Shown here: positions 629-40,771 of the stretch, piece by piece | Layout of the letters: every line of letters begins with the position of its first letter | How positions within the stretch are numbered: the first letter of the stretch is position 1 | Source: Chiloscyllium plagiosum | Taxonomy: Eukaryota | Assembly: GCF_004010195.1 (NCBI RefSeq) | Contig: NC_057756.1 | Span: forward strand, 8,666,221-8,710,975 | Direction: 5' to 3' | DNA length: 44,755 nt | The notes under the pieces: generated by a model | Told to the model about the DNA's origin: nothing | Seen by the model: only the letters and a program-made list of their open reading frames with translations | The model's database searches: none | Program-made: the position numbers and the translations under genes

Positions 629-641
629 TCCCCAGAGGACA

Positions 642-1378: not shown

Positions 1379-2837
1379 GTTTTGTTTTATTCCTGTGTGG
1401 GATGTAGATGTTGCGGTCTCGTCAGCATTTATTGGTGTGCTGCCTTCTTGATTTACTGCAATCAACATGCTATAGGTTGACCAACAATTCCCTGGGAGAG
1501 GGAATTAAAATAGTGTTTTTCCCCAGCAATTCTAAAGGAACAGCGATATATATCCAACCCAGGATGTTGGGTGGCTTGGAAAGTGCTTATTAAGGAGTCT
1601 TGGTGAATTTTTGCAGTGTATCTTGGAGATAGTACATACTACTGGGATTGGATGCTTGTGGATATAATGCCAATCAAGCAGGTTGCTTTGTCCTGGATGG
1701 TGTCAAGATTCTTGAGCATTGGCAGAGCAGTGCCCATCCAGGCAAGTGGGGAGTATTCCATAATATTCCTGACTTATGTCTTGTAGAAGGTAGATAGGCT
1801 TTAAGGAGTCAGGAGGTGAGTTAATTGTTACAGTATTCCTGGTTGTGACCTGCTCTTGTAGCCAGTGTGTTCATGTGACAACTCCAATTGAATATCTGAT
1901 CAATGGTAACCCCAAGAATATTGACAGCAGGAGATTCAGTGATGATAACGCCATTGAATGTCTAAAGTGGTGGTTAGATTGTTTCTTATTGGAGATAGTT
2001 ATTGCCTGTCATTTGTGTGTTGTGAACGTTACTTTCCACTTGTCAGCCCAAGCCTGGATATTGTCCAGTCATGTTGCATTTGCACATGAACTGCTTCAGT
2101 ATTTGAGGGTTTATGAGTGGTGCTTAACATTGTGTGCAGTCACTGGTGAACATCCCCACTTCTCACCTTATGAAGGAGGGAAGGTCACTGATGGAGCAGT
2201 TGAAGATGGTCAGGCCTAGGACATTATTCTAAGGAATTTCTGCAGAGATGTCCTGGAGCTGCAATGACTGACCTCCAACAACCAACAACCATTTTCCATG
2301 TGCCAGGTATGACTCCAACCAGCCAAGAGATTGCCCCTGATGCCCATTTATTGCAGTTTTGCTAGGGCCCCTTGACACCACACTCAGGCGAATGCAACCT
2401 TAATCAAGCGCTATCACTCTCATCTCACCTCGGGAATTCAGCCCTTCTATCCATGTTTGAACCGAGCCTGTAATGAAGTCAGGAGCTGAGTGGCCCTGGC
2501 AGAACCTAAACTGGGCGTCACCGAGCAGGTGCTGCGTGATACCACTGTTGATGGGACTGTGCATGGTTTTACTGATGACCAAGAGTAGACTGATGGAGCA
2601 GCATATACCTGGCCAATTTTCTACATTATCCAGTAGATGCCAGTGTTGCAGCTGTATTGGAACAGCTTGGCGAGGAGAGTAGCAAGTTCTCAAACACAAA
2701 TCTTCAGCACTATTGCTTGAATGTTGTCAAGGCCCATAAACCTTGCAGTTTCTAGCGCCTCCAACTGTTTCTTGATATCACGTGGAGTGAATGGAATGAG
2801 GTGAAGACTGGCATCCACTGGGGACCACTGGTTCATT

Positions 2838-2964
2838 CCTGAAGAAGGGCTTATGCCCGAAACGTCGATTCTCCTGTTCCCTGGATGCTGACTGACCTGC
2901 TGCGCTTTTCCAGCAACACATTTTCAGCTCTGATCTCCAGCATCTGCAGACCTCACTTTCTCCT
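2838..2964 (+). mobile_element. Short Penelope-like insertion (family A) with hammerhead core and 12-bp TSD
   Basis: TSD cactggttcatt at 2826-2837 and 2965-2976. Confidence 0.85.
2839..2866 (+). ncRNA. Minimal type I hammerhead ribozyme motif
   Basis: CTGAAGA-a-GGGC-ttat-GCCC-GAAACGTC; palindromic ACGT helix III; GUC triplet; helix I weak (2 bp). Confidence 0.65.
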
Positions 2965-2976
2965 CACTGGTTCATT

Positions 2977-3148
2977 AATGTCCTTTAGAGGAGGAAATTG
3001 CTGTCCTTAACTGATCTAGCAACTCTTAACATGTGATTCCAGACTCTCAGCAACGTAGCTGACACTTAATTGTCCTCTGAACAATTCAGAATGGATAATA
3101 AATGCTGACTTGGCTAATGACGCTCAAATCCCATGAATGCATAAACAG
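2977..3148 (+). mobile_element. SINE 3' fragment sharing its tail with the CR1/L2-group LINE
   Basis: Tail aataaatgctgacttggc...atcccatgaatg resembles the LINE 3' ends at 22080-22135 (+) and 5100-5135 (-). Confidence 0.55.
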
Positions 3149-4623
3149 CTCATCAGTTCTGGCTGAAGATTTTTGTGAGTGCTTAAGCTTTATATTTTGC
3201 ACTGATGTATTGGACTCTTCCATAAATGGGGATATTTGTGGAACTTCCTCCTCTAGTGAGCTGTTTAATTGTCCACCACCATTCATGACTGGATGTGTTC
3301 TGATCCATTGACTGTGGGATTGCCTTTATGCTGTTGGATAGTCCTGTTTGGTAGCTTTACCTCGTTGACACTTCTTTTTTAGATTTGCCTGGTGCAGCCT
3401 TTGGTATGCCCTCCTTCATTCTCCACGGAACCAGGGCAATACCCTGGCTTGGTGGTAATGGTTGAATGGGACATAGTTAAGACCATGAGGTTGCAGATTG
3501 TGATGGTTGATGGATATTAGTTCATAAGATATAGGAGTAGATTTAGGCCATTCAGACCTTTTTTTTTTGCATAATGTGCTGGAGTACCATTCTGCTGCTG
3601 TTGATAGCATACAGCAGCTCATGAATGCCCAATCCTGAGTTGCCAGAATGTGAAGGCAAGACTCGGTTTCCACAAAGACTGTGCAGTGGTCAGCCTTAGC
3701 AGTACTGTCATGGACTGCTGCATCTGCAGCTGGCAGGTGAGTGAGGATGATGTCAAGTATGCTTTTCCCTCTTGATGGTTCCCTTACCGTCTGCCACAGA
3801 CCTAGTCTAGCAGCTATGTCCTTTAGGAAGCCACCAGGTCCATTAGTAATGCTGCTGCCAAGCCACTCTTGATGGTGGACATTCAAATTCTTCATCCAGA
3901 ATACATTTGTGCTTTTGCCACCCTCAGTGCTTCCTCCGAAGTGGTTTTCAACATGGAGGTGTAGATTCATCAGCTGAGGGAGGATGGTACATTGTAATCA
4001 GCAGGAGGTTTCCTTGCTCATGTTTAACCTGAAGCCACGAGATTTAAGGGGCCTTGAGTCAAAGTTGAGGACTTCCAAGGCAACTCTGTCTGACTGTGTG
4101 CCACCACCTCTGCTGGGTCTGTTCTGGATATCCAGGGATTGGGTTGGTGATGTCTGGGACATTGTATTTATGGTATGGATATATGAGGCCATTGCTTCAC
4201 TAGTCTGTGAGATAGCTTTTCAATTCTGGCACTGCCCTTCAGATGTTTGTAAGGAAGACTTTGCAAGGTCAATGGGGTTGTTTCAGCCATTGTCTTTTCT
4301 GATGCCAAGGTCGATGCCAGGCGATCTGTCTGGTTTCATTTCTTTGTTGAGAATTTGTTGCAACTGATACAACTGAATGGGTTGCTGGGCGATTTCAGAG
4401 GACAGTTGAGTGTCAACCACATTGCAATGAATTTGGAGTCATATATAGGCCAGGCCGGGTGAGTGACAGATTTCCTTCTGTGAAGGGCATTAGTGAGCCG
4501 GTTTATCTGGCAATTGACAATGGTTTCATGTTCATCAGTAGATCCTTAATTCCAAATATTTTTTATTGAATTCAAATTTCACTATCTGCCTTGACTGTTT
4601 TGAACCTGTGTCCCCAGAACATT

Positions 4624-4714
4624 CCTGAAGAAGGGCTTATGCCCGAAACGTTGATTCTCCTGTTCCTTGGATGCTGCCTGACCTGCTGCGCTTTTCCAGC
4701 AACACATTTTCAGC
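4624..4714 (+). mobile_element. Short Penelope-like insertion (family A) with hammerhead core and 13-bp TSD
   Basis: TSD tccccagaacatt at 4611-4623 and 4715-4727; core CTGAAGA...GAAACGTT at 4625-4652. Confidence 0.85.
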
Positions 4715-4784
4715 TCCCCAGAACATTAGCTCAGTTTCTGGATCAGTTCAGAGATAATACCATTAGGCCATCACGTCCCCATAA

Positions 4785-5097
4785 TAAAATTATTGAAGGG
4801 GCTAATCATGCAGGGATGATGATATTATTGAAGGGATTATTGTTAAAGGATGATATTACTGAAGTGGTTATTACAGATGAGGATATTATTGAAGGTATAA
4901 TGATATTGTTGAAGGAGTTACTATGGAAGGATAACGATATTGAAGGGGTTATAACTAGTGGTTATAATTTGAGGGAATGATATTGAGTTGTTTATTATTG
5001 AAAGATAATGAAAAAAATTGAAGTGGTTATTATTGATAGCGGTATTATTGAACAGCTAATTAATAAAGGATATTGTGGGGGTTATTATTGAAGGGAT
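4785..5097. repeat. AT-rich minisatellite, block 2
   Basis: Same gatattattgaag units as 1140-1378. Confidence 0.8.
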
Positions 5098-6362
5098 TTA
5101 GGCATTGCTGACTGGCCAGCATTTATTGCCCCTCCCTAGTGGCTCTTGAGAAGATGGTGGTGACCTGCCTCCTTAAACCACTGCAGTCCACCTGTTGTGG
5201 GTTGACCCACAATGCCAAAATAGGAAGGGAATTCCAGAATTTTGGCCCAGCAACAGTGAAGGATTGGAATATATATCCAAATCAGGGTGGTGAGTGGCTT
5301 GAAAGTGGTGGTGTTCCCATGTATCTGCTGCTCTTGTCCTCCTTGATGGAAGTGGTCACGGGTTTGGAAGGGTGCTGACTGAGGATCTTTGGTGAATTTC
5401 TGCAGTGCATCTTGTAGATTGTACACACTGCTGCTACTGACTGTCAATGGTGGATGGAGTGGATGCTTTTGGATGTGATGCCAATCAGGTATACTGTGAT
5501 GTCCTGGTTGGTGTCAAGTTTCTTGAGTATCTTTGGAGTTGCACCCATTCAGGCAAGTGGGGAGTATTCAGTCACACTTCTGACATGGTGGAAGGCTTTG
5601 GGGAGTCAGGACGTGAGCTACTTGTTGTAGTATTCATAGCTTGTGACCTGCTCTTGTAGCCACCATGTTTATTTGGTGAGTCCGGTTGAACATGATAACC
5701 TCAGGATGTTGATTGTGGGGATACAATGATGGTAATACCATTGAATATCAAGGAACTGTAGTTAGATTGTCTCCTATTGGTGGTGGTCATAGCCTGACAT
5801 TTGTGTGGTGTGAATGATCACTTGCCCTTGGTCAGCCCAAGCCTGAATATATCCAGATCTTGTTGCATTTGAACATGGACTACTTCGATACCTGAGTCTT
5901 CAAAAATGAACATTGTGCAATCATCGATGAACAACCTCACTTTTGACCTTATGATGAAGGGACGGTCATTGGTGCAGTAGCTGAAGTTGGTTGGGCCTGG
6001 GACACTACCCTAAGGAACACCTGCAGAGATGTCCGAGATTCACGATGACTCACCTCCAACAACTGCATCTACCTTCCAATGTGTCAGGTATGAATCCAAC
6101 CAGCAGAAAGTTTGCCCCGTTATACCCATTGATTCTAGTTTTGCTAGTAGCTCTTGTTGCTACACTTGGTCAAATGCAGACTTGATGTCAAGGGCTGACA
6201 CTTTGACCTCACCTCAGGAATTCAGCTCGCTTGTTCATATTTGAACTGAGGCTGTAATGAGGTCAGGAGCTGAGCGGCTCTGGCAGAACACAAACTGGGT
6301 GTCACTGAGTAGGTTATTGCTGAGGAGATGCTGCTTGATACCACTCTTGATGACATCTTCCA
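5098..6362 (-). mobile_element. 5'-truncated CR1/L2-group LINE (same family as 1490-4780)
   Basis: Collinear similarity with 1490-2580; reverse strand has a VP*GSVPGP RT motif near 6000-6020 and a 3' tail near 5100. Confidence 0.8.
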
Positions 6363-7150: not shown

Positions 7151-7339
7151 TGTTTTGAAAAGGGTGGCACTGGCACAGCAGGTCAGGCAGCTTCCAGGGA
7201 GCAGGAGAGTCAATATTTCGGGCATAAGCCCTTCTTCGTCAACTCTCCTGCTCTTTGGATGCTGCCTGACCTGCTGTGCTTTTCCAACACCACCATTTTC
7301 GACTCTGACACTCCAGCATCTGTAGTCCTCACTTTCTCT
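7151..7339. mobile_element. Penelope-like inverted terminal-repeat pair (family A)
   Basis: Minus copy at about 7155-7237 joined to a plus copy at about 7238-7339; TSD ctcaac(t/c)tgca at 7140-7150 and 7340-7350. Confidence 0.8.
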
Positions 7340-7560: not shown

Positions 7561-7981
7561 GAGGAGGAATACCTCATCTTCCACCTTGGGACCCACCAAG
7601 CACACTGCATCAATGTCTATTTCACCAGTTTCCTCATCAGTCCTTCCCCCACCTTATCCCAGATCCAACCCTCCAACTCAGCTCTCTTGAACTGTCCTAC
7701 CTATCCATCATCCTTCCCACCTATCCACTCCACCCTCTGCTCCAATCTATCACCATCACCCCCCACCTTCATCTACCTATTGCCTTCTAAGCGACCTTTC
7801 CCCCCAGTCCTCCCACCTCCCATTTATCTCCCAGACCCCTTGGGCCACCCTCACATTCCTAATGAAGGGCTTACGCCTGAAGTGCTGACTCTCCTGCTCC
7901 TCGGGTACTGCCTGACCTGATGTGCTTCTCTAGCGCTACACGTTTTGACTCTGATCTCCAGCATCTGCAGTCTTCACTTTC
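7561..7981 (+). mobile_element. Penelope-like element 3' end (GIY-YIG C-terminus, pyrimidine-rich UTR, terminal repeat)
   Basis: LEEEYLIFHLGTHQAHCINVYFTSF followed by the family A repeat with a decayed hammerhead near 7858; TSD ctacctg at 7554-7560 and 7982-7988. Confidence 0.8.
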
Positions 7982-10087: not shown

Positions 10088-13000
10088 GTAAGGAGAGTGT
10101 ATATCGTTGAACCAACGCATACCCCTGAGATGCCACTGTGTCTTGACTGACTGTGCAGTCCTGCCCAATGTTTGCCTGTGATGCTAGTACCAAAATGTGC
10201 TGATGATCAGGAAAGAACAGGACAGACCGTGGGCTGCGTTCTCTACAAAAAAAGGAGGCTGAGTGGTGGCCTGATCCAAGTCGTAAAATTAGGCAATCAT
10301 TTGGATGTGGAGAAGGTGTTTTGACTTATTGGTAGGAGACCAGAGCTAGATAGCAGTGATAGAAGACAGTCCCTAATAAATCCAATGGAAAATTCAGGAG
10401 AAACATATTCCTCCAGACAGTGAGGGAGAATGTGAAACTTATGCCCACAGGGAGTGGTGGAGGTAATTTGAGTTGAGGGCTAAATTCAGGACTGCAGCTA
10501 TTTTGTGGCGTTTTGCCTTTCTGAAAAGAGATGTTTTACTGAAGATTTACATTGTGTACTTGTCAAGGCATTCCCAAAAACAGCAAATTTCGAAGGCCAG
10601 GGTATAAAATGTTGCAGGTCATAGAGTCATAGAGATTTGCAGCACACAAACTGACCCTTCGGTCCAACTCATTCATGCTGACCGGATAGCCTAACCTCAT
10701 ATAGTTCCGTTTACCAGCACTTGGCCCATACCAGCTTTCCCCACTTCCTCTGGCAGCTCATTCCATACACACATCACACTCTGCGTGAAAGATTGCCCTT
10801 TGGGTCCCTTTTATATCTGTGTTCGAAGTTTATAATTTTGTGTTGGTCGTGATGAGAAACGTTGATGACATTGATAAAACTGAGAACGTTGGGTGTGGAG
10901 ATCTGAAACAAAACAGAAATTGCTGGACAGACTCAGCAGGTGTGCCAGTATTCGTAGAGAGAAAGCATAGTCTCGGGTGCAGTGACCCTTCCAGACTGTT
11001 CTGTCCATTCTCAGTTTGAAGAAGCACCTTAGGATTCAAAGTGTTAACTCTGCTTTCTCTTCATAGGTCTGCCAGACCTGCTGAGTTTCTCCAGTTTGTA
11101 AACTTGATAACATGTCTTCTTCAGCAACTTTCCTCTTCTATATTTTGAGTCTGAAGAAGATGTGTGTTTCACAGATATGTATAAATGACAATTTTTTTTT
11201 TGCAAATCTTCAGAGTGAAATTCTCCTTATTTGTTCATTTTCTGTTTTGTGTTTTTTCTTCCAGTCTCTGTACTGGTCAGTGTCAAGACATCTGGGAATA
11301 TGTCACTTGCTACGTCAAGCGGAAAGAGTAAGTGACTGCACACTGCTGTCGTGTTGGTAGCTTGTCAAGGCGTAGGCCAGAGAAACTGGTGGTTTCCCAG
11401 GATGTCATGTTCAAGCAAGGCTGATATTTGAGACTTGGAGAAGAGGCATTCACCGTCTTGTGACTTACCCATAGAGGGTTACAAACCATTGCCCAAACAT
11501 AGTTGTTGCTGAAGGAAGTTTGTCTGAAGTCTGGACACAGCAAGCTCCCTCAAATTCCAGTAAATAATTACCAGATTGTGTTAATTTTAATGTTGCTGAT
11601 GGGATGAAAATTGGACACCAGGAGGAAGTCCCTCACTGCTTTTCCTCAACACAGTTGCTCTGATAATTATGGAGTTGACCTGAGCTTGGAGACAGTGTAA
11701 TGCTTCGAGAAGGGACAATGCTTCAAGGAATTGTTCAAGAGGAGGCGCTTCCTTGGCCCTGAGCCCCTGAGAACGTGGCGCTCCCTCAGCCCTGATCCCC
11801 TCAGAATGCGGCCTATTAAACTGGCCGAATCGCCGGGTGGCTGATGCCTGTTGTCACACATGTTTAGTTACAGTTAAACCTCCAGTGATTGCCTGGCTCA
11901 CTTCATCCATTTCTCTCTTACAGGGTAGTGAGAGAGATCAAGGGGAACCTGGAATGGTATCCTTTAAGCTGTTGGCAGTAATTTATGCTGGGAGACCATG
12001 CTCTGGGTTATAATGGTCATACTGGGGAGATTGTGAAACTCAGGCAAATCAAGTCAATCAGAAATGTCTTTAGATGATGAGACAGAAACAACAATTGAAA
12101 GATTGTTAAAGTTTGGGGCTGTGGGCAACTGAAGGCATGCTGTCAATGGTAGACTGATGGGAATTGGGGGATTCTGGAGAAGTTGGAATTTGAGGTGCGC
12201 AGATCACTCAGATAGGGAGTGATGCAGGGGCCAGAGGAGGCTGCAGGGTTTGGGAGGCGTGGAGAGGCCGGAGAAGGTTGCAGAGGGAGGCGTGGAGGGG
12301 CCGGAGAAGGTTGCAGAGGGAGGGAGGGAGGCGTGGAGTAAGGAGCCATATGATTTCCTTGCAGTGACGTTGAGACTTTCCTTGACTGTTTGCTTAGGAA
12401 CCGGTGGGTAAAAGGCTCTGAGGTAAGTGCTGTGAAGAGGAAGAGGTATATCAGGATGTCTTTCTATTCGGTTTAAAAAGTAAATTTATTGTGTGATTCC
12501 AGGCAGAGACAGCACAGGGTTCAATCCAGAGTAAAGTTTCCTTTATACTATCAAACGCTCCCGGACAGGGTCAGCACGGGTTAGGTACAACGGAAAGCCC
12601 CCTCTACGTTGTCTCCGTGAAATCCACCCAGGGCAGGACAGTACAAGTTTAGATGCATAGTGAAGCTGTCTCTACTCTGTCCCCATCATGAGAACATGAA
12701 TCTGTTTTCAGTCTTGCATTGTGATCAGCATGTGCAGGATAGACACAGTTTGCATTTAGCTCTAGTTGCCTGTTGGTAGGGTGATTGAATCTTACACAGT
12801 GTGTTTCTGTTCCACTCCCAGGCTCCATTGTCTGACAAGGAGCAGAAGAAAAGGAGGAAGCTACTGGAACAACTTGTATCTCTGCAGACTGATCTCCAGC
12901 AATTGGACGAAAGCTCAGAGCACGAGCAGCAAGAGATTGATGGTGAGCTGTCAGACCCTGTCAGATTCAGTCTGTTAGTGCAGCCTGGCCCACTCTTCCC

Positions 13001-16000: not shown

Positions 16001-19000
16001 CTGAGAGGTGGCCTCATCAAAGTTGTAAAATTAAGTAAGGGGCTTTCATCTGTATATCTACCCGATCATGTTTCAACTTATTGGTATTAGATCAGAACTA
16101 GGGAGCAGTGATAGAAGACAATCAGAGATGTATAGCATGGAAACGAACCCTTCGGTCCAACTCATCCATGCTGACCACAGCCTGATTTAATCTAGTCCCA
16201 TTTGCCAGCACTTGGCCCATATCACTGTAAACTCTTCCGATGCATATACCCATCCAGATACCTTTTAAATGATGCAAGTATACCAGCCTGCACCACTTCC
16301 TCGAGCAGCTCATTCCATACATGCACCACTCTCTGCATGGAAATGATGCCCTTGGGTCCCTTATAATTCTTTCCCCTCTCACCCTAAACCTATGCCCTCT
16401 AGTTCTGGACACCGCACCCAGGGAAAAGACCTTGTCTATTTACCCTATCCATGCCCCTCATGATTTTATAAACCTCTAAGGTCACCCCTCAGTTTCGACA
16501 CTCCAGGGAAAACAGCCCCAGCCTATCTGAGCCCGTTCAAGCTTCACACCATCCTTCCGATAGGAGGAAGCCCAGAATTGCACGCAATATTCCAACGGTG
16601 GCCTAACCAATGTCATTTACAGCCGCAACATGACCTCCCAACTCCTGTACTCAATGTATGATCAATAAAGGAAAACGTACCAAATGCTTTTTTCATTATC
16701 CTGCCTACCTGTGACTCTACTTTCAAGGAATTATGAACCTGCACTCCAAGGTCTTTTTGTTCAGCAACACTCCCTAGGACGATACAGCAACTCTCTGCTT
16801 TTATATCCCTTTATGTTATGGACCAGACCAAACTTTTAGCCACAGCAGAGAGAGCTGTATCGAGCAGTTTCAAACCGCCAACCTCAGCGAAACTGAAACC
16901 CTGGGTATGTGTGAATCTGACTCGACTCATTCATGCGTCCTTCATCTCGTTTAAAAAAAACCACAGAGCTCAAAGATGTTACCTGCTGCTTCTGAAGCAG
17001 AGATGTTGTCTCTGCAATAGAAACGACGCAGAATAAGTTTTAAAAGGCACAATATTGTACCAATTGGTCCTTGGATGTGTTCCCTCTTCCAGGATTGGAC
17101 CAATTCTCTTCTGGATTGTTTGCAGCAACTCCCTGTGCTTAGCTGGGATGTCCTCAACCAAGAATGGTGTCCATATTTTACAAAAACAAGCTTCCAATCT
17201 TGATGAATAACTCACTAGGGTGAGTTTATAAGAGCAAATTATCACACAGGCTGGAATCTGCACTGAAAACAAAAAATGCTGGAGATTACAGCAGGTCAAG
17301 CAGCATCTGTGGAGAGAGAGCAAACTAACATTTCTGAGTCTAGATGTCTCTTCAGAGCTGTAGTGAGGTGGGAAGGGGTTTGGAATGCTCCCTCAGGATT
17401 CTGACCCCGCACGCACCCCATTATTGAATGAATGCTGCTGCCACACACTTTATGTCAGCTCTGATGAGGAGTCATCTCAACTTGAAATGTTAGTTTGCTC
17501 TCTCTCCGTGGATGCTGTCTGACTCACTGTAATCTCCAGTACTTTTGTTGTCAGGGTGAGTTTATAACCCAGTTTCCTGTAGCAGCACCTTGAGCAGTAT
17601 GGGCAGACGTGTGGCTGATGCTGTTTAACCCTTAAGAAACAGGCAGTCCTCTGTAGAGGCTAACGTTCTCCATGGAGCACAAGAAATTGATGGAGACATC
17701 TGATTGAGTGCGGTGATTTAGTTAGTGACTGGTTTCGACAAGGGAGACAATGAAAAACTGTTCCCATTGGCTGATGGTAGGAACATGACCCAGATTTAAT
17801 GTTCTGGGTAGGAGTAGCAGAGACCAGGTTAGAACGGAAATATTTTTAATGCAGTGAGAGATAATGACCTGGATCGCATTGACCATGAGGAAGCTGGAGA
17901 AGGATTTCACAAAGAAATTGAGGAAAGATAAGCTTGCAAAACGACTTTCTCTGTGTTCCCACTCCACAGGTTGGAATGACCGGATTTCACTATACAGGGC
18001 TGGCATTGGCTTGATAGACAGATTAGACTCCTTCATTGCTGTAGTGACTCTGTTTTATAAAAATCAACATGTTCTGGATTTGGAACCTGTGAACTATATC
18101 TGTCTCTCTCACTTTCTGCCTTAATCCCTCTTTGTGTCTGTATGTTTCTCTCTCGCAATCTCCTTCTTTTTCTCTATGTCCTGCACACGTGCACTCCCTC
18201 TCTGTTCCAGACTCCGTCTGTCTCATTCGCTCACTCTCTCTCCAATCTCTTTCCCTCAGCAAGATGTTCGGGGAACGTGTTTCACGAGATTCCAGCTCCT
18301 GAAGTCGTTATATGATGAACAGGAGAGTCCTCTTGGAGGTGGTGGGTAGGTAGCTCCTGTGCTTCATGCATTTGTGGGTCTTCTCTGTCTAGTGCTTGGC
18401 AGATCTTGAGCTGAGAATCCAGGCGAGGGAAGTGGCAGTCACCGATGGTGGAGTGATGGGAATCAACAATTGGCTGGGAGGTGGGTGAGAGGCAAGCATT
18501 TGTGCAACATTGAGACTTCAGGGGTTGTAGGGAGTAGAAGAGGTGACAGACGAAAGGAACAATGTAGGAGCTTAAAGAGGTGACAGGTGGCGAGGGGTGT
18601 CGGGGTTGTGGGAGGTGACGGCGATGGGGCGGGAGTCGGTGCCTGGGCCGGGGCCGGGAAAGGTGGCGGAGATGGGGACGGTAGTCGGGGCCGGGGGAGA
18701 TGGGGGACGGAGATGGGGACGGGGCTCGGGGACGGGGGAGGTGACAGAGATGGGGACGGAGGTTGGGGCCGGGCGAGGTGTTCTGTACCTCATATTTATT
18801 AAATGTATTTTTCCTTTGCTCACAGTGACAGGGGCTATGACCTGAGAAGTGACAGTTATCAGCAATGGCTGAACCAGATAGAGGTGAGTGCCAATTCTCC
18901 TTGGGATATGGGGTCCCACATACCCATACTCACCAGGGTGTAGGGGGCTGCTGAGATAGGGAGCGCTGTGTACGCAGACTTGGGGGTTTTGTCTGGTTTT

Positions 19001-22000
19001 TTTGCAATTTTCAGCCTTTGTTTTTGTGCAGGGTGTTAATGCGTCACACCCACCAATCCACATCCTGGCGGCAGTGCAGACTCTGGCAGCTGAGAATAAA
19101 GAGGAGCTCATGGAACTCCAATCGAAAGTGGATGTGGGAAAGGACATGGAAGTCCTCAGGTAATCTTTGTTTGGCAGAACTCTTGCTGTGTGCAGGGAGC
19201 TTTACTCTGTGTCTAACCCCATGCTGTCCCTGTCCTGGGAGTGTTTGATTGGGAATAGTGTAGAGGAGACAACAAAGCTTCAGATGCTGGAATCCAAGGG
19301 AGACTAGCAGGAGGCTGGAAGAACACAGCAAGCCAGGCAGCATCAAGCGGTGGAAAAGTCAATGTTTCACGTGTAACCCTTCAGGACTAGGAGTGGAGGT
19401 GAGGGGAGCTGCAGTTAAAGGGGGGTCTGAGGGAGAGTGTTGGGTGGGGAGACTGACAAGAGGGGTGAGGTAGTGATAGGTGAACACAGGTAGAGGGTAC
19501 GGCCTGTTTGATAATGGGAGGAGTGAATATGGTTGGTGGCTGGAAGGTAGGGTCAGTAAGTGGAATGGAAGGGATGAAGAGAGGCTGGAAAGGGAATTGT
19601 GGGATGGGAAGGAAGGTTATTTAAAATTGGAGAACTCTATGTTGAGTCTTCTGGGTTGCCCAGTATAGAAGAAGCTTTACTCTGTATTTAACCCTGTGCT
19701 GTTCCTGTCCTGGGAGTGTTTGATGGGGGGACAGTGTAGAAGAAGCTTTACTCTGTATTTAATCCTGTGCTGTCCCTGTCCTGGGAGTGTTGATGGGTGC
19801 AGTGTGGAGGGAGCTTTACTTTGAGTTTAAACAAATAGAGGGACTTTTATTTTCAGCATAAAAGAATAGAAAGCATTACTCTGTATCTGCCCCCATGCAT
19901 TCTCTGTCCGGAGTGTTTGGGAGTACTGTAATAGAAGCTTTACTCCAGTTTAACAGTAGTGGGAGTTTTGCTTCCTATTTAAGAGTGTAGGGATGCTAAC
20001 TCTGTGCCTGACTCCATACTGTCCTTGACCTTCAAGTGTTTTTTGTTGAGACAGTATTGAAAGTGTGTTTACTTTTTATTTCCATTTCGTGTAAAAGAGA
20101 AAAGGGCGATTTACTTTCAGTTTACATTTCATTTAATAGAACAAAGGGAGCTGTACCCTTTATCTAACCCTGAGCTGTCCCTGTTCTGAGTGTGTTTGTG
20201 AACAGTGTGAAAGGAGCTCTACTTTCAGTTTAAAAGAAAGAGGAGACTTTACTCCCAGTTGAAATAAGTAAATGCATATTTCTCTGCTTAAAATAGTGTT
20301 TGATGGAGACTCAGTGTTAAACAAAACATGTAGAGGAGTCTTTAGTTTTAAAGAGTAGAGGCAGTTTTACTCTGTAGCTAAGCCTGTGCTGCACCTGGCA
20401 TGGAAGTGTGTGTGGGGTTGAAAATGTGTTACTGGAAAAGCGCAGCAGGTCAGGCAGCATCCAGGGAAGAAGGGCTTATACCCGAAACATCGATTCTCCT
20501 GTTCCCTGGATTCTGTCTGACCTGCTGCGCTTTTCCAGTAACACATTTTCAGCTCTGATCTCCAGCACCTGCAGTCCTCACTTTCTCCTCAAAGTGTTTG
20601 TGGGGTAAATGTCGATGAAGGTTTATTTTCCATTTGTGGTTTAAAAACGTAGAGAGAGCTTTACTTTAATTGTTTTTAAAGAAGAGAAGAGGCGCATTAC
20701 TTTTGGTTTGAGAGAGGAGTGTGAGCTTTACTCTGTATCTAGCCCTGTGCCGTCCTTGTCCTGGGAATGTTTGATGGGGGGGAGTGCAGTGTAGAGGCAA
20801 CTTTACTTTCATTTTAAAGTTGACAGAGCTGGACTCTGTACCCTAACAGTGTTCCCTCTGGTTTGAGTTTCTGAGAAGTGTGTGTGTGTTTACTGGAAGC
20901 TCTTTAATCTGACCGAGAGTTGTCTTTTTGTTAATGATATATCACTGCTGAGTCTGGCAATGGTGCCCTTTTTGTTTGCAGGTTCTCCTACAGTCGTTCC
21001 CACCTACAGGATGTCTCCGAGGCTCCTGCGGTTCTACGCTCTGTCAAGTCTTTACTTGAGGTTTGTACGATGTGAGAGATTAGCTTTTGAGTGGGAGTGT
21101 AAATGTTTGGTCAGAGTGAACATATTCCAAGCACAGGGAGAGCCAGCCTGAAACTATCCAGTAATGTCACACTGATCAGCACAAGTTCATCTTTATGATG
21201 TATAGTTGGGAAACAGGCCATCCTGTTCCTTGCTTCTTCCCTGTGCGCTCTCCCACAGCAGTGATTTCTCCCCTCCCCACCTCTCGACTCATCTCCCCTC
21301 ACTCCCTCACCAACATCTCCTTCTATTCCTTTCTTCCTTGTGTGTTTATACTTCTCTCTCTATTAATAAATTGACATGTTCCAAACCCCTTCCCTGTGGG
21401 AACAATTGCACATCCTCCCCTCTCCCCTGTGGGAGCAAGCCCCACATTCCCCACCCCCAGCCTTCTGGGGACTCTTTCCTGAGTGCTGAAACTTTCATCC
21501 TTGGCCAAATTATGTTGGAATCAACAATCTGTCCAAGATAATATTCAATAAGTGTAAAAGATGCAAGCTGCAGCTGAAGTTTTATGCCGTATCAATGCGT
21601 CTGTCAATGTAAACTCTCCTTCTGACTCCCCAAGGCACAAGCCAGGACTGTGATTGTATACTCTCCACTTGTCTGTGTAGGTGTAACTCCAAAACAGTCA
21701 AGAAGCTTGACACCTTCCAGGACAAAGTAGACCACTTGATTGGCATTCCATACACAAGCATGTGCTCCCCCCCACCACCAACATTCAGTAGCAGCAGTGT
21801 GTACTATCTACAAAATGTCCTGCAAAAATTCACTGGTGGGCCACAGAAAGCAAACCCACGACAACTTCCATCTAGAAGGACAACATATGGGAACACCACC
21901 ACCTTTGAGATCCTCTTCAAGTGACTCACCATCCTGACTTGGAAATATATCACCGTTCCTTCACTGTCACTGAGTTAAAATCCTGGAATTTCCTCCCTGA

Positions 22001-25000
22001 AGGCATTATTGGTCAACCCACAGCAGGTGGACTTCAGCGGTTGAAGAAGACAGCCCATCACCAACTTCTGAAAAGGCAATTAGTGATGGAGAATAAATGC
22101 TGATCCAGCCACTGACACCCGCCACAGTGAAGTAAATGGAACAGTTCTTGATTATGTCAAAACGCCTTCAGTTTAACAAAATGTTGCTGTGCCTGCAGTT
22201 TCCAACCCCCTGCCCCCATCTTTGATGCACTGGTTTTTGTTGTTGCTGTTTGACCAAATGATTGTGTTTCCTTTATTATTTCCTGGGATGTGGCTGTTTG
22301 AGGCTGGACCAGCATTTATTGCTCATCCCTAATTGTCCTGGAAAACATTGGGGTGAACTGCCTTCTTGAACTGCAGCAGTTTTTGGATTGTCAGTGGATT
22401 CCTGCTTGCTGTGACCATCCGTGAACCACTTGATCACACAGTAGTCGCTGAAAGCTGACATCCTTCCTGAGACAGACTCCATCTCCATGCAAAGTTGTTT
22501 TAGGGAGTCAGGGGGGAACTTGGAGGAGCTGGTGTTGCATAAGGTCACCCCCTGAGCCTCTGAGACACTGCCCTTACCCTTCTAGCTGGAAGTGTTCAGG
22601 AATATGCTGCCTCAGGCGACTTGGTAAATTGCTGCAGTGCGTCTTGTAGATGGCGCACACTGCTATGATTGAGTGACAGTGGTGAAGGGGGCGAATGAAC
22701 ATTGAACATAGAACGTTAAAGTGCTATACAGGCCCTTCGGTCTTTGATGTTGCACTGACCTGTAAAATTAATCTGATGCCCATCTAACTACACCGTTCCA
22801 TTATTCAGATGTATGTCCAATGCCCACTTAAATACCCTTAATGTCAGCGAGTCTACTACTACTGCAGTCAAGCTGTTCCACGCCCCTATTACTGAGTAAA
22901 GAAACTACCCCTGATATCTGTCCTAAATCTATCAACCCTCAATTTAAAACTATATCCCCTCGTGTTAGCCTTCACCATCCGAGGAAAAGGATCTCACTGT
23001 CCACCCTATCTAACCCTCTGATTATCTTATACATCTAAATTAAGTCACCTCTCAACATTCTCTCCAACAAAAACAGCTTCAGTTCTCTCAGCCTTTCCTC
23101 GTAAGATCTTCCTTCCATACCAGGCAACATCCTGGTAAATCTCCTCTCAACCCTTTCCAAAGCTTCCACATCCTTCCTATAATGCGGTGACCAGAACTGC
23201 ACGCAATACTTCAAGTGCGGCCTTTCCCAGTGTCTTGTACAGCTGAAGCATGACCTCATCGCTCTGAAACTCAATCCCCCTACCAATAAATGCCAACACA
23301 TCATATGCCTTTTTAACAGCCCTATCAAACTGGGTGGCAACTTTCAGGGATTTATGCACCTGGACACTGAGATCTCTCTGTTCATCTACACTGCCAAGAA
23401 TTTTATCATTAGCCCTGTTCTCTGCATTCCTCTTACTACTTCCAAAGTAAATCACCTTGGTTTCCACATTAAACTCCATTTGCTACTTGGCAAAAGTGAG
23501 GACTGCAGATGCTGGAAACCAGTGTCTAGGTTAGAGTGGTGCTGGAAAAGCACAGCAGGTCAGGCAGCATCCAAGGAGCAGGAAAATCGACATTTCGGAC
23601 AAAAGCCCTTCATCAGGAACTTCTCAGCCCAGCTCTGCATCTTATCTATGTCCCTCTGTAACCCACAACATCCTTTGATACTATCCACAACTCTGCATAC
23701 CTTAGTATCATCTGCAGATTTACTAACCCATCCTTCTACGCCCACATCCAGATCATGTATAAAAGTGACAAACAGCAGTGACCCCAAAACAGACCCTTGC
23801 GGCACACCTGGTAACTGAGCTCCAGGCTGAGCATTTCCCGTCAACCACCACCCTCGGTCTTTTCTTAGCTAACCAATTTCTGATCCAAACCATTAAATCA
23901 TCTTCAATCCCGAAACTCTGTATTTTGTGCAATAGCCTCCCGTGTGGAACTTTATCAAATGCCTTACAGAAGTCCATAAACACCACATCACCACTTTACC
24001 TTCATCTACCTGTTTGGTCACCTTCTCAAAGAACTCAATAAGGTTAGTGAGGCATGACCTACCCTTCACAAAAACGTGTTGACTATCCCTAATCAAATTA
24101 TTCCATTCCAGATGATTGTAACACCTTGCCCTCAACTGAAGTAAGGCTCGCTGGTTTATAATTACCAGGGTTGTCCCGACTTCCTTCCTTAAACAAGAGA
24201 ACAACATTTGCTATCCTCCAGTCTTCTGGCACTATTCCTGTTGACAATGATGACATCAAGATTGAAGCCAAGGCTGTGCAATCCCCTCCCTGGCTTCCCA
24301 GAGAATCCGAGGATAAATCCCGTCCGGCCCAGGGGTCTGATCTATTTTCAGATCTTCCAAAATTGCTAAAACCTCCTCTTTGTCACCCTCAATCCCATCT
24401 CATCTAGTAGCTTATATCTCCGTATTCTCGCTAATGTGAATACTGACAAAAGGTATTCATTAAGCGCTACCCCTATGTCCTCAGATTCCGCGCACAACTT
24501 CCCACTACTGTCTTTGAATGGCCCTAATCTTACTCTAGTCATTCTTTCATTCCTGATATACTTATAGATGGCCTTAGGGTTTTCCTTGATCCTATCTGCC
24601 AACAACTTCTCATGTCCCCTCTTCTTAGCCCTCTCTTTAGGTCTTTTCTGGCTAACTTATAACTCCCAAGCCCCCAACTGAGCCTTCACGCCTCATCCTC
24701 ACATAAGCCGCCTTCTTCCTCTTGACAAGAGCTTCAACTTCTTTAGTAAACCATGGCTCCCTCTATCAACAACTACCTCCCTGCCTGATAGGTATATACT
24801 TTTCAAGGACCCAGTAGCTGTTCCTTGAATAAGCTCCACATTTCAAGTTTGTCCATCCCCTGCAGTTTCCTTCCCCATGCTATGCATCCTAAATCTTGCC
24901 TAATCCCATCGTAATTGCCTTTCTCCAGTTATACCTCTTTCCTTGCAGTATATACCTATTCCTGCCTATTGCGTAAGCATAACCGAATTACAGTCACTTT

Positions 25001-28000
25001 TGCCAAAGTGCTCACCTATCTCCAAATCAAACAACTGACTGGGTTCATTTCGGTAAAAATAATGACTGCAGATGCTGGAAACCAGATTCTGGATTAGTGG
25101 TGCTGGAAAAGCACAGCAATTCAGGCAGCATCCAAGGCGCAGCAGCAAAATCGACGTTTCGGGCAAAAGCCCTTCATCAGGAATTTCCCCAGTATCAAAT
25201 CCAATATGGCGTTGGCCCTTTTTGCCCTGTCTATGTACTGTGTCAGAAAACCCTCCTGCACAAACTGACCCGTCTAAATTAACTGAACTGGAAGTTAAAG
25301 TCCCCCATAACAACTACCCTGCTACACTCGCTCCTATTGAGAACCATCTTTGCTATCCTTTCCTCTACATCCCTGGAACAATTCAGGGGCTTATAGCAAA
25401 CTCCCAACAGGGTGACCTCGCCTTTCCTGTTTGTAACCTCAGCCCAAACTACCTCAGTGGATGAGTCCGCAAACATTATCTCAGCTGCTGTAATACTATC
25501 CTTGATTAACAATGCCCCCCCTCCCCCCACCCAATACCCCTGGCTGAAACATCTTAATCCTTGTTGATGTGGGGCTGGAATGATCTGTGGTAAAGTTGAA
25601 CTGCCCTGCGTTATCTCCCAGAGGGGAAGCAGTTAAATTGCGTTTTTGTGTGGTCCCTCGGCAGGAGAGATGGCGAGACTGTGAGGTCCGGGCAGTGGAG
25701 AAGATCGGGGCCCTCAGGCGGGAGAAGGAAATGAGTGGAAGGCTGACGGCGCTGAATAAGGAGTTTAATCGCCTGCTGGAGGAACAGTATGCGCATGATG
25801 CTGAGCTCCTGTCTGCTGTCAGGTCAGAAGCTTTGTCCCCTCTTCGACAGTGTTTAGAAAGCACCTTGTGGCGAGGTTAGCTCAGTTGGTGGGATGGCTG
25901 GTTTACAATGCAGAGTGATGCCAGCTGTGAGGTTTCAATTCCTGCATTGGCTGAGGTTGCCATGAAGGAATCTGCTTCTCAACCTCTTCCCTCACCTGAG
26001 TAAACCACTTTGGGTAAAACACCAGTCATAGCACTGTATAGCATGGAACTTCGGTCCAACTCGTCCTTGCCAACCAGATATCCTAAATTAATCTAGTCCC
26101 ATTTGCCAGCATTTAGCCCATATCATTCTAAACCCTCCCTATTCATATACCCATCCAGATGCCTTTTAAATGTTGTAATTGTACCAACCTCCACCACTTC
26201 CTCTGGCAGCTCATTTCACACATGCACCACCCTCTAAGTGGAAAGAAAATTGCCCCTTATGGCAGTTTTTAAATCCTTCCCCTCTTACCTTAAACATATG
26301 CCATCAAGTTTTGGACATTCCCATTCTAGGGAGAAGACCTTGGCTATTCATCCTATCCATGCCCCTCATGATTTTATAAGGCCACCCATCAGCCTCTGTG
26401 ACACTCCTTTGAAAATAGACGCAGCCTATTCAGCCTCTCCCTACTCAAACCCCTCCCAACCCTGGCAACATCCTTGCAATCTTTTCTGAACCCTTTCAAA
26501 TTTCACAATATCTTTTGTGTAGCAGGGAGCCCAGAATTGAACGCAGTTTTCCAAAAGTGGCCTAACCAATATCATGTACAGCCGCAACATGACCTCTCAA
26601 CTCCTATACTCAATGCTCTGACCAATGAAGGCAAGTGTACCAAACGTCACCTTTGCTACCCTGCATATCTGTGACTCCAGTTTCAAGAAACTATAAACCT
26701 GGACCTCAAGGTCTCGTGGGTCGGCAATACTCCCCAGGACCTTACTATTAGTGTATAAGTCCTGCCCTAAATTGCCTAACTAAAATACAACACCTCACAT
26801 TATTCTAAATTAAACTCCATCTGCCACTCCCAGGCCGTCTGATCAAGTTCCTGTTTTATTCTTGCTGTTCACTGCACCAGCAATGTTGGTGTGATCTGCA
26901 AACTTCCTAACCGTACTGCCTATATTCATATAAGTGTCTATAAATTATAGACAAGAAGCAGTGGACCCAGCAGCAACCCTTATGGCACACTGCTAGTCAC
27001 AGGACTCCAGTCTGAAAAGCAACCCTCCATCACGATCCTATGCTAACCAGTCTACCGTCCAGAACCTTGTCGAATGCCTTACTGAAGCCAGTATAGACAA
27101 CATACACTACTCTGTCGTCATCAATCCTCTTCATTACTTCTTCAAAAAACTCAGTAAAGTTAGCGAGACATGATTTTCCCAAGCATAAAAACCACGTTGA
27201 GTATCCCTAATCAGTTCCAAATGCACGTGAATCCTGTCCCTCTGAATCCCTTCCAACAATTTTATAAAATCATTGAATTCTTAGTGTGGAGGTAGGCCAT
27301 TCAGCCCATCAAGTCCACACCGATCCTCCGAGGAGCATCCCACCCAGATCCTGGTGGTGTGACACAGCAGTGTGAACCACCGAGCCACTATGACACATCA
27401 ACTTACCCATCACTGAAGTCACGCTCCCTGGTCTATAATTCCCTGGCTTTTCCTTACCACCTTTCCTAAATAATGGCACCTTGTTAGCTAATCTCCAGTC
27501 TTTTGGCACTTTGCCCATGGCTATGGATAATGCAAGTATCTTGGCATGGGGCCCAGCAATCCCTTCCCTAGCTTCAGTGGAGATCAGCAAACAGGGACCA
27601 CAGAGGACAGAATGGTAAACCGAATCCTTTGTAAGATGGGACCATATAGATGGCGGAGGTTGGAGCTGCCAGGTAGGAGGCAGTGGAATAGCAGGGTGCT
27701 GTCAACCTTTCTGCAGACATTGAGCGGCATCGCTGGTCTCGCCTGCAGCCATGTCTCACTGGACAGTGCGCTTGTGTTTGTGACAGGGAGGCCTCGGAGC
27801 TGGAACTGACTGCGATGGAGAAGAGGAGCTACCTCCAGGAGCTCTCGGAACAGGCTCAGCTCTTAGCTAACTCCATAGAAGCCAAGAACCGTGAGATCCA
27901 GATCCTGCAGCAGAAGCACAGCAGCATTCTCCACTTCCAAGCTCTCGTGGTAAGTCTGCTGTTGAGGTAGGGGCTGGGCGAGACTGACAGGATCTGCCTG

Positions 28001-35829: not shown

Positions 35830-36097
35830 GGCAATGATTTGGAGCATAGTTTCCTGAATGACATTGATCACTTCCTGTTTACGCAACTGTATCTGTGGGG
35901 CGGTGAGTACATGTTAAACCATGGGGATACCTTATTGTAGATCTAGGGGCTAGGCCAACCCGTTTCGGAATGTGTCAGTGGGAGTCTCACAGGTGTCGGA
36001 GAACACAACACGGTCACGTCTTTGGTAGCATTTGGAGCGAAAGGTCCAGGCTGAGGTGCACACTAGCCATCTCAGTGCATTTCACATTGCAGAGGAA

Positions 36098-36548
36098 GTG
36101 CCGCACTGTCGGAGGGTCAGTGCTGAGGGAGCGCCGCACTGTCGGAGGGTCAGTGCTGAGGGAGCACCGCACTGTCTGAGGGTCAGTGCTGAGGGAGTGC
36201 CGCACTGTCGGAGGGTCAGTGCCGAGGGAGCGCCGTGCTGTCGGAGGGTCAGTGCCCAGGGAGCGCCGCACTGTCGTAGGGTCAGTGTCGAGGGAGCGCC
36301 GTGCTGTCGGAGGGTTAGTGATGAGGGAGGATCGCACTGTCGGAGGGTCAGTGCTGAGGGAGCACCGCACTGTCGTAGGGTCAGTGCCGAGGGAGCGCCG
36401 TGCTGTCGGAGAGTCAGTGCTGAGGGAGGGTCGCACTGTCGGAGGGTCAGTGCTGAGGGAGCGCCGTGCTGTCGGAGGGTTAGTGCTGAGGGAGGATCGC
36501 ACTGTCGGAGGGTCAGTGCTGAGGGAGCCTGCACTGCTGGAGGGTCAA
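36098..36548 (+). repeat. 33-bp GC-rich minisatellite (about 13-14 copies)
   Basis: Tandem gccgcactgtcggagggtcagtgctgagggagc. Confidence 0.95.
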
Positions 36549-39645: not shown

Positions 39646-39849
39646 ACTCTAAGCCAACCAGCTCTTGGGAATCACTGGTTAGTGACTGAGTAAAAATGAA
39701 GAAAGTCACTGACAAATGACAGTGAAAGAGAGGAGGGTTATAAAGGCCAGATCTGGAAAATTTCAGTACATCTTTGCAGCGTTGGCACCTGTTTTCCCAA
39801 ATCCTCAACTTGAGCGCTCAGTGCATCCACCTTTTTACTTTTATTAATG

Positions 39850-39944
39850 ATCCCTGATGAAGAAAGAGCTGGTGCCTGAAGCCTTGACCCTCCTGCTCAT
39901 GGATGCTGCCTGACCTGCTGTGCTTTTGCAGCACCGCACTCTCG
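39850..39944 (+). mobile_element. Short Penelope-like insertion (family A) with decayed hammerhead core and 13-bp TSD
   Basis: TSD acttttattaatg at 39837-39849 and 39945-39957; begins atccCTGATGA. Confidence 0.8.
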
Positions 39945-40054
39945 ACTTTTATTAATGGCATCATTAGTATCGTGGACAGGTATCTGAGACTGTTTCCAAA
40001 CGAAGCCTGTGGGTCCTGTACAGGAGATGCACGGACAGAAAGAGGACCCTTGGC

Positions 40055-40153
40055 AGCAGTGCAGCACTCCCTCTGCGCTGACCCTCCGACAGTGCGGCGC
40101 CCCCTCTGCGCTGACCCTCCGACAGTGCGGCGCTCCCTCTGCGCTGACCCTCC
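40055..40153 (-). repeat. 33-bp minisatellite (about 3 copies)
   Basis: gcgctgaccctccgacagtgcggcgc repeated. Confidence 0.88.
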
Positions 40154-40352
40154 CTCTGTGCTGCAAAATGCACTCAGCTCACTGCTTGCTTGCAGCTGAA
40201 TCCTGTCCTCTCCACATCTTTTAGCAAATGACTTTATCAAATCCAGATTCTGATATTGATCCCTGACATTCTTACATAAGTCACTGCCAATGACTGCCAC
40301 TGTCCATGCTGCCATTCCCAAACATCTGTCTGTCTCTCCCTTCCTCAGTGAA

Positions 40353-40552
40353 TGACTTGGAGATGCCGGTGTTGGACTGAGGTGTACAAAGTTAAAAATC
40401 GCACAACACCAGGCTATAGTCCAACAGATTTAAGTGAAAGCACTAGCTTTCGGAGCGCCGCTGACAACCACCTGATGAAGGAGCAGCGCTCCCAAAGCTA
40501 GTGCTTCCAGTTAAACTTGTTGGACTATATCCTAGTGTTGTGTAATTTTTAA
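40353..40552. mobile_element. Penelope-like inverted terminal-repeat pair (family B) with hammerhead motif and 13-bp TSD
   Basis: TSD cttcctcagtgaa at 40340-40352 and 40553-40565; + arm aaccacCTGATGAaggagcagcgctccCAAAGCTAgtgctt; - arm keeps GAAAGCTAGTG. Confidence 0.85.
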
Positions 40553-40771
40553 CTTCCTCAGTGAAGGTTGTAGTTCAGGAAGTGGGCATCGGAATGGATT
40601 CACAACACAAATGGATCTGTAACAATCTCAGAGTCCAATTGGAACATGGTTTCTGAGCAGCACTGCACTGAGCTCACCTTCTGTCCATCAGTTCAACTTG
40701 ACCCATTCCACTCCTCCACCTTTCCTCTGTTGCTCAGAAAAGAATTGTTCTTCTCCTGCTGATCCAGTTGG

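Follow-up and report, generated by a model that had tools for sequence, protein, structure and literature searches.

Hammerhead ribozymes have been described in the pseudo-LTRs of metazoan Penelope-like elements (PLEs), where a type I core is combined with an extra base at 9/10.1, a G10.1-C11.1 pair, a palindromic tetramer at 15.2-16.2 and a short helix I (Cervera and De la Pena, 2014, PMC4209133). Most are single motifs ascribed to truncated elements, opposite-strand pairs lie 100-700 bp apart, and there are many families with covarying helices; copy numbers reach the thousands in coelacanth and Xenopus. The literature thus already describes minimal hammerheads of truncated elements, both solo and inverted. 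Neptune-type elements combine a reverse transcriptase (RT), a CX2-5CxxC linker and, at the C-terminus, an endonuclease of GIY-YIG type, and their insertions display heavy 5' truncation, an adjacent inverted truncated copy, a tail of 30-40 bp at just one of the ends, short target duplications and microhomology at 5' junctions (Arkhipova et al., 2013, PMC3846280; Craig et al., 2021, PMC8557442). For another Penelope element, Poseidon of Anolis (PAc), in vitro work showed that the protein nicks at ATT and extends both strands, that copying starts at two internal sites, a tail length apart, downstream of the hammerhead, and that sequence from the ORF start is needed whereas ribozyme cleavage is not (Frangieh et al., 2024, PMC11167929). 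Animal non-LTR retrozymes are also short, non-coding, related to pseudo-LTRs and provided with a type I hammerhead, and dispersed monomers of them exist (Cervera and de la Pena, 2020, PMC7229834; bioRxiv 10.64898/2026.07.22.740005).

Here, we analyse a stretch of DNA of 44,755 nt from a shark-like host (the window), in which a sequence-only reading had noted hammerhead-bearing insertions at ten sites, assigned them to at least three Penelope-related families and taken them to behave like a non-autonomous, retrozyme-like population. Its view that these are short retrotransposed inserts of Penelope-like origin and great abundance is borne out: the inserts represent the end that bears the ribozyme in Penelope-like jumping genes, an element type already known. 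The features listed above for pseudo-LTR hammerheads and Neptune-type elements recur here, the protein domains in the nearest proteins. However, two supplementary files of PMC4209133 contain no shark, skate or Callorhinchus entry, and the available portion of that paper mentions no clustering of heads at the core; the density here is about one insert per 3 kb. Unlike Neptune-type copies, most insertions consist of the terminal 90-130 bp alone, with the inverted partner abutting another stump rather than an ORF. As in PAc, there are two fixed 3' ends, spaced by a tail length and placed some 90-130 nt downstream from the hammerhead, with ATT at the target ends of some copies and heads upstream of the cut, as for an uncut template; PAc belongs to another clade, however, and shows no start-site difference between strands, whereas each pair here has a long and a short arm. 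Retrozymes are defined as tandem repeats giving circular RNAs, with canonical hammerheads in the 2020 paper, while only monomers or inverted pairs with minimal hammerheads are seen here. The element type, the hammerhead and the inverted and tailed insertions are published; what this genome contributes is the scale (about 7% of the window) and a very regular product. Less ordinary are the clustering of heads at the core and the combination of a long with a short 3' end in all five inverted pairs.

Insertions in the window

The window contains 14 short insertions of 92-430 bases, made up of 19 arms and covering 3.1 kb (6.8%), 11 of them without coding sequence. All ten sites noted earlier are real, although two insertions (10872-11103 and 19268-19664) had been overlooked. 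The division into three families stands only in part, since the downstream module of family C is common to family A, and only family B is unrelated.

The inserts occur as monomers or as head-to-head pairs. Four family A monomers have a complete core: 2838..2964 (+, 127 bp, C3 at 2839, predicted cut after 2866, duplication 2826-2837 / 2965-2976), 4624..4715 (+, 92 bp, short 3' end, duplication 4612-4623 / 4716-4727), 23489..23618 (-, 130 bp, AUGU tetramer, one G-U pair in helix II, 4-bp duplication) and 25052..25182 (-, 131 bp, the best helix I in the window, 5-bp duplication). The core is decayed in another, 39850..39944 (+, 95 bp, short 3' end), which is bounded by a 13-bp duplication (39837-39849 / 39945-39957). 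The family B solo copy at 501..631 (+) has a long 3' end, CUGAUGA at 510, helix II GGAGC/GCUCC and a decayed GAAA box, and no target duplication was found around it.

Among the five inverted pairs, the family A pair at 7156..7339 consists of a short arm (7156-7237, -) beginning at core G5 and a long arm (7237-7339, +) beginning about 4 nt before the predicted cut site, within a 16-bp duplication with two mismatches. The second family A pair, 20419..20591, has a short arm at 20419-20468 (-), a long arm at 20466-20591 (+) beginning at G5, and a 15-bp duplication with one mismatch; one minority base is common to both arms. In the family C pair at 17232..17552, a long arm (-) and a short arm (+, core at 17461) are separated by about 95 nt and bounded by a 15-bp duplication (17217-17231 / 17553-17567). 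A decayed C-like pair at 10872..11103 also has a long arm (-) and a short arm (+), with a possible 10-bp duplication (one mismatch). The family B pair at 40353..40552, with a 13-bp duplication, joins a long arm (40353-40462, -) that keeps only the second half of the hammerhead to a short arm (40463-40552, +) with one core change.

The remaining three are long copies. The family A copy at 7561..7978 (+) runs from a GIY-YIG C-terminal remnant (7561-7656) through a pyrimidine-rich spacer and a decayed hammerhead at 7859 to the module, and its possible 9-bp duplication is within chance. The other, 41115..41543 (+), comprises a 39-bp palindromic head, a GIY-YIG C-terminal remnant (41165-41401, one stop), the start of the spacer, a 26-N gap and the 3' module; a target duplication was sought at its flanks and not found. 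The divergent A-related copy at 19268..19664 (-), whose upstream end is approximate, has a decayed hammerhead near 19385, an upstream spacer and, in translation only, a weak resemblance to the endonuclease C-terminus.

Hammerhead core and folding

A strict descriptor of the minimal type I form (helix I of at least 2 bp, CUGANGA, helix II of at least 3 bp, GAAA-NN-UH) gave five matches in the window (2839+, 4625+, 17461+, 23616- and 25180-) and none in each of 20 shuffles; 40472+ joins them when one core mismatch is allowed. The bare CTGANGA..GAAA pattern is weak alone, with 11 matches against a chance mean of 4.4. The inserts display the core boxes, the extra base before helix II, helix II, a short helix I and the palindromic tetramer. 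The proposed minimal type I hammerhead, in which the helix III tetramer is palindromic, is supported, as is helix II pairing across families. The full core is present in 5 of the 19 arms, three of which have a palindromic tetramer. ACGU, proposed for family A, holds for three of the four core-intact A copies, while AUGU occurs in 23616 and both C arms; AGCU, proposed for family B, occurs in two of the three B arms, none of which retains the whole core. Helix I of family A is made of 2 bp, a mismatch and then one to four further pairs. The 6-bp helix I and loop contacts of canonical hammerheads are absent from the inserts, and an Rfam scan of the window matched no hammerhead family.

In six dispersed A copies, core and helix II carry non-majority letters at 9 of 114 sites, compared with 36 of 332 in the downstream part (p = 0.47). 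It is likely that the dispersed copies are dead ends under neutral decay, and selection on the fold, as suggested earlier, is best placed in the parent elements. No pairs were predicted in a consensus fold of the downstream module from ten arms, and single folds of whole inserts were not superior to those of shuffled sequences (z -0.2 to -1.3, 6/6); consequently, we do not claim a conserved structure downstream. When two copies were folded by energy, the double-hammerhead form was not obtained, which such models are not built to predict.

Insert ends and target duplications

Duplications of 12-16 bp were found at seven of the ten sites noted earlier (2838, 4624, 7156, 17232, 20419, 39850 and 40353), and the short ones of 4 bp at 23489 and 5 bp at 25052 were also recovered. 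With random positions, a comparable score was reached in 6 of 150 trials, so the 12-16 bp duplications are regarded as real and those of 4-5 bp as within chance. When the flanks of 23489 are rejoined, they align through the insertion point with a further LINE copy of the window.

The 3' ends are bimodal, at +119 to +134 from C3 in 12 arms and +80 to +92 in 7 arms, that is, two fixed ends separated by some 35-40 nt. All five inverted pairs combine a long arm with a short one (p ~0.02). The optional tail, inverted copies and duplications of Penelope insertions are thus all represented, the last by 12-16 bp duplications at 7 of the 14 insertions. Nine of the 14 heads lie at -11 to +3 from C3, upstream of the predicted cut site, a clustering with p < 1e-6 under the most favourable single-rate truncation; one of the 19 arms begins near the predicted cut position, and no stand-alone fragment in the window begins downstream of the core. 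The last letters are CATT in two duplications and AT in a third, as in the element's own sequence before the core, and this microhomology blurs the true head. An initiator-like TCACATT precedes the core, too degenerate to count.

Coding sequence and parent elements

The proposed link between family A and GIY-YIG coding remnants is confirmed at 7561, where it is contiguous over 7561-7978, while at 41165 it crosses the 26-N gap (41459-41484), which hides the hammerhead. The hammerhead at 7859 lies about 200 nt after the remnant, in the terminal repeat downstream of the ORF, and 58 of 59 positions are identical between the family A module and the module attached to the coding remnant. Both remnants match RT + GIY-YIG proteins, with 63-81% identity between remnant P0002 and shark proteins of this kind; Pfam gave no match for the 79-aa remnant itself. 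The RT itself is absent from the window, where only family A has a coding link, family B being represented by its hammerhead, tail and inverted pair.

The nearest shark proteins match 93 longer proteins, most of about 850-950 aa with RT and GIY-YIG annotations. Before GIY-YIG, P0004, one of the nearest proteins, carries CHRRNCKTC, a CX4CxxC linker also found in alignment A5, outside the window; this linker motif is also common to Nematis. The closest full-length relatives of family A are Penelope-like proteins in which RT and GIY-YIG are accompanied by a zinc-finger linker of Neptune type. Among 79 related metagenome loci, 32 reach the end of the endonuclease with 400 nt to spare, and 12 of these 32 informative loci have a strict minimal hammerhead at most 800 nt downstream of it. 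Several of these hammerheads are nearly those of family A, for example that of L040, with helix II GGGC/GCCC and ACGU. The exact family A motif was found at no locus in viral and metagenome contigs, and no related ORF was confirmed in viral contigs.

Reads and contigs

Reads and contigs were mapped on the copy at 7541-8005, where the core is too diverged to locate heads genome-wide. Depth follows local identity, and only peak ratios are quoted: at its peak, the module is covered 11-18 times as deeply as the spacer or the coding sequence in two DNA runs, and 12 times as deeply in raw RNA reads. A depth ratio of ~100 in a presumed-RNA contig run was set aside. In contigs and RNA reads the 3' end is sharp and followed by unrelated sequence (agreement 0.38-0.49), not by a further unit. 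Read starts and ends do not pile up at the cut site, which a poly(A) single-cell library and contigs are unable to reveal, and this is weighed neither for nor against cleavage.

Origin of the insertions

We consider that the inserts are 5'-shortened pseudo-LTR ends of endonuclease-bearing Penelope-like elements, likely inserted by the parent RT-GIY-YIG protein at nicked DNA from an uncut RNA whose start likely lies just ahead of the ribozyme motif (probability about 0.55). Most inserts begin at the motif likely because the copied RNA starts there. Copying would run off the uncut RNA from the element's internal start sites; from those in the 5' pseudo-LTR it would cover only 90-130 nt to the RNA front and yield mini inserts, while a start in the 3' pseudo-LTR would yield the rarer copies reaching the ORF. 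Where both nicked strands keep their product, one per start site, a head-to-head palindrome would result. Several points count against this explanation. In related invertebrate-type loci with two pseudo-LTR copies, the shared part begins at the core in 1 of 11 and at -45 to -488 in the others, which means that the clade does not generally place the head at the core, although this comparison is loose, the pairs having been chosen through their ORFs. In D. virilis, transcription starts about 120 nt upstream of the hammerhead, not at it (PMC2377424, PMC4209133). The microhomology at the heads and the small sample (n = 14) are further points against it. A more specific version, which we advance tentatively and at slightly less than even odds, is that the mini inserts are directly integrated 'strong-stop' copies, one uncut RNA priming both nicked strands, one per 5'-repeat start site, with run-off at a transcription start placed by the hammerhead. 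If so, the genome would hold a record, likely in hundreds of thousands of copies, of the start site, the two priming sites and the strand using each; it would explain why the elements need a tandem for whole copying, and the ribozyme would not cut the template used for insertion.

With the same parentage, the head could instead be a truncation hot spot on full-length RNA, copying having started in the 3' pseudo-LTR and stopped at a protein-bound hammerhead, or the cDNA having been captured or cut at the element's own ATT immediately ahead of the core. This seems rather unlikely, though it has points in its favour: the duplications ending in CATT at 2838 and 4624 match the element's upstream letters, a related protein cuts ATT, also within the repeat of its element, and helps the hammerhead (PMC11167929), 5' truncation affects most PLE copies (PMC8557442), and arm starts at +3, +3, +11, +25 and +39 suit stalling across a structure. 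However, the other ATTs of the module (~+30, ~+84) yield no stand-alone heads, the family B heads and 39850 have no matching ATT, and helix II has only 4-5 bp in inserts that fold no better than shuffles. It is highly improbable that the short copies are the remains of longer insertions after deletion or pseudo-LTR recombination. Solo pseudo-LTRs made by recombination have been proposed (PMC3846280), and 501 and 41115 have no duplications, but duplications bound seven inserts exactly, the five palindromes would not be expected from direct-repeat recombination, and recombination would still require a 5' repeat that begins at the core.

The separate retrozyme-like population of the sequence-only reading, spread through tandem or circular RNAs and dimeric hammerhead processing, does not hold up well, and we regard it as improbable. 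Most copies are indeed non-coding, as the counts and depth ratios show, majority letters in sequencing runs restore the core (G5, A15.1 and U16.1), and non-LTR retrozymes derive from pseudo-LTRs and were found in the one cartilaginous fish sampled (bioRxiv 10.64898/2026.07.22.740005). Nevertheless, the window contains no head-to-tail tandem unit with a hammerhead, the cut site coincides with neither end of the inserts, none of the 15 joints listed (148 further exist) links a 3' end to a head, loose ends of contigs and reads show no common continuation beyond the 3' end, and the hammerhead is of the minimal PLE type, not the canonical type defining animal retrozymes (PMC7229834). Since the module is that of ORF-linked copies, tandems are lacking and the core decays about as the rest of the module does, the inserts are likely pseudo-LTR stumps of autonomous elements.

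Short inserts in large number, with the junctions preserved on both sides, could serve to test the in vitro model of PLE insertion in vivo by counting alone. Seven sub-threshold Rfam matches in the window (six microRNA, one snoRNA) were rejected because all lie on four palindromic inserts; the palindromic pairs resemble microRNA hairpins and can mislead annotation.

Insertions and their families

By self-comparison and profile scans of the window, 14 insertions of 92-429 bp each were identified, with 19 module arms (the module being the sequence 3' of the hammerhead), which amount to 3,060 bp or 6.8% of the window. They are genuine and numerous and belong to a known kind, that is, Penelope-like pseudo-LTR stumps with the known minimal hammerhead. 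All ten sites of the sequence-only reading and both coding-linked copies are among them, together with two insertions that it had overlooked (10872-11103 and 19268-19664). Its division into three families holds for B, whose module is unrelated to the rest, but not for A and C, which have a common downstream module; this module also occurs in the two overlooked insertions, and helix II differs among all of these. The ~95 nt between the family C arms (17362-17455) match neither arm's expected flank nor the rest of the window, and may represent captured DNA or an upstream portion of the repeat.

Target duplications of 12-16 bp flank 7 of the 14 insertions; scores this high came up in 6 of 150 trials of a random null. 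The duplications at 23489 and 25052 are 4 and 5 bp long, and the candidates at 7561 and 10872 (9-10 bp) lie inside the null range. The search at 19268 was swamped by a tandem repeat in the flank, and that at 501 and 41115 found none.

Hammerhead cores

A strict descriptor found five full cores in the window and none in any of 20 shuffles, and an extra base precedes helix II in all five. Helix II is GGGC/GCCC in family A and GGAGC/GCUCC in family B, and each family C arm keeps 4 of the 5 pairs of a GAGUC/GACUC stem derived from both arms combined. In the six A copies spanning the head, 5 of 66 core sites and 4 of 48 helix II sites differ from the majority, compared with 36 of 332 in the downstream module (p = 0.47, with low power). 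Nothing here points to the dispersed copies being under the selection on the fold that had been proposed; that helix II still pairs in different families reflects the parent elements. The Rfam search of the window did not detect the hammerhead motifs of the inserts. The palindromic inserts at 7175-7277, 20442-20529, 41130-41188 and 40438-40532 received sub-threshold Rfam microRNA-precursor scores, and one snoRNA score, which are a likely source of false annotations.

Parentage of family A

Translated, 41165-41401 gives the C-terminal part of a GIY-YIG domain, interrupted by one stop; it matches two shark proteins (named from bamboo shark) at 81% and 63%, and the remnant at 7561-7656 matches it at 65%. 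The longer shark protein comprises a partial RT, a CX4CxxC linker and GIY-YIG, and retrieves 93 longer proteins, the majority of full element size; a linker of this type is described in PMC8557442 as a mark of Neptune and Nematis. A young mini subfamily is identical at 58 of 59 positions to the module that follows the remnant at 41165 beyond a 26-N gap; the 7561 copy is gap-free. We put the probability of a Penelope-like parentage of family A near 0.9.

An alignment of 14 proteins from those relatives led to 79 metagenome loci, 24 of which contain a strict minimal hammerhead; it lies downstream of the ORF in 12 of 32 informative loci. Of the 8 loci with the hammerhead upstream, 6 have a long ORF starting at -18 to +185 of C3 (the zero point of all offsets); the module therefore serves as leader to the following ORF as well. 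The long ORF's first ATG overlaps the hammerhead in two full-length relatives: it straddles the predicted cut site in one (L017:1028-1060) and lies inside the CUGAUGA box in the other (L005:323-350).

Reads and copy abundance

The sequence 7541-8005 was matched to two DNA contig runs (36,213 and 29,899 contigs), raw RNA records (1,583 of 13.0 million) and one presumed-RNA contig run (2,512 contigs). The 3' end is sharp, with about 1,800 and 1,900 contigs, plus about 980 reads, exiting at 7980-7982, past which agreement is 0.38-0.49 and the hammerhead consensus is absent. Peak depth of the module relative to the spacer or coding part is 11x and 18x in the DNA runs and 12x in the raw RNA, depth here not being equal to copy number. 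The majority letters restore G5, A15.1 and U16.1. RNA reads occur in both orientations, all as partial fits, as would passenger transcripts. Extrapolated from one window, a density of one insert per 3 kb would put the copy number in the hundreds of thousands for a gigabase genome.

No tail-to-head link occurs among the 15 joints listed (148 others stand outside them). The 2026 bioRxiv retrozyme paper, which includes one cartilaginous fish, defines retrozymes as tandems; its tables may list these shark families. The suggested retrozyme-like population is unlikely, since the tests for tandems (in the window, contigs and reads) and for a canonical ribozyme both went against it. The hammerhead of the inserts is already described in PMC4209133, in single and opposite-strand copies and with low dimer activity. 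Further comparison was made with PMC3846280, PMC2377424, PMC7229834, PMC6765202 and PMC8455134. In the literature outside subscription journals, Dfam and Repbase, no work devoted to these shark families was found, nor, in titles and abstract starts of the same scope, anything on clustering of Penelope insert heads at the core.

Insert heads, 3' ends and a possible mechanism

In 9 of the 14 insertions the head that extends furthest upstream falls between -11 and +3 of C3, an interval picked after looking; under the most favourable single-rate truncation, such clustering has a chance below 1e-6. One more head is within about 22 nt, three are at the ORF end, and family C is uncertain. No stand-alone pieces starting downstream of the core were found among the window inserts. 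In related loci a head at the core is common to only 1 of 11 repeat pairs, which differs from the window heads at Fisher p = 0.012, although ascertainment differs between the sets. The 3' ends are bimodal: twelve arms stop between +119 and +134, and seven between +80 and +92. These two groups correspond to the 30-40 bp tail of published Penelope-like elements, traced in PMC11167929 to two internal reverse-transcription start sites. All five inverted pairs (two arms head-to-head) combine a long arm with a short one (p about 0.02 assuming independence). The fixed head and this pairing are the parts that merit a genome-wide count.

How could such heads arise? The predicted cut falls after +28 and only a single arm starts close by, so the cleaved 3' product was likely not the template. 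In the in vitro work of PMC11167929, a Penelope protein nicks at ATT and extends both strands; it starts within the RNA, downstream of the hammerhead, and depends on the ORF's first 172 nt, and the RNA that it inserts is uncut. Were the shark elements to behave likewise, priming would occur at a junction of repeat and ORF, hence in the 5' repeat, and copying would proceed for 90-130 nt up to the RNA front; tandem RNA would be needed for whole copies, and priming of both strands, one per start site, would yield long/short palindromes. We infer for this run-off copying an RNA start at the insert head. The two arms at 20419 have one minority base in common, which fits a shared template but is one instance only. 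A strong rival is that the heads come from full-length RNA, through a roadblock or through ATT capture.

At 41115-41203, a 39-bp palindromic head is built from endonuclease coding sequence, and its inverted arm outreaches the direct one by 11 nt on the upstream side. On either side, the flank resembles what we take to be one of two widely separated portions of a CR1-type element; given this distance and the lack of a duplication, a target deletion may have occurred.

Host gene and other repeats

Two consecutive exon pieces give weak, collinear matches to the HAUS5 profile (profile positions 371-414 and 417-440; E 0.08 and 0.008); for this reason, inserts beyond about 10 kb probably sit, judging from sequence, in introns of a HAUS5-like gene. 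Its putative exons span 9996-34093 on the plus strand and follow a GC-rich stretch (about 9600-9720). Both core-intact A copies inside it (23616 and 25180) are antisense; among the sense copies there, none has a full core with a palindromic tetramer (the 41115 core lies in the gap). The counts are too small to call a bias. In addition, a dispersed 33-bp GC-rich minisatellite occurs on both strands, with 2-14 units per site, at 11744-11806, 32484-32728, 34417-34508, 36088-36547 and 40057-40153, and an AT-rich 15/32-34-bp repeat family occurs four times upstream of the HAUS5-like gene (1130-1380, 4780-5100, 6360-6490 and 9210-9515).
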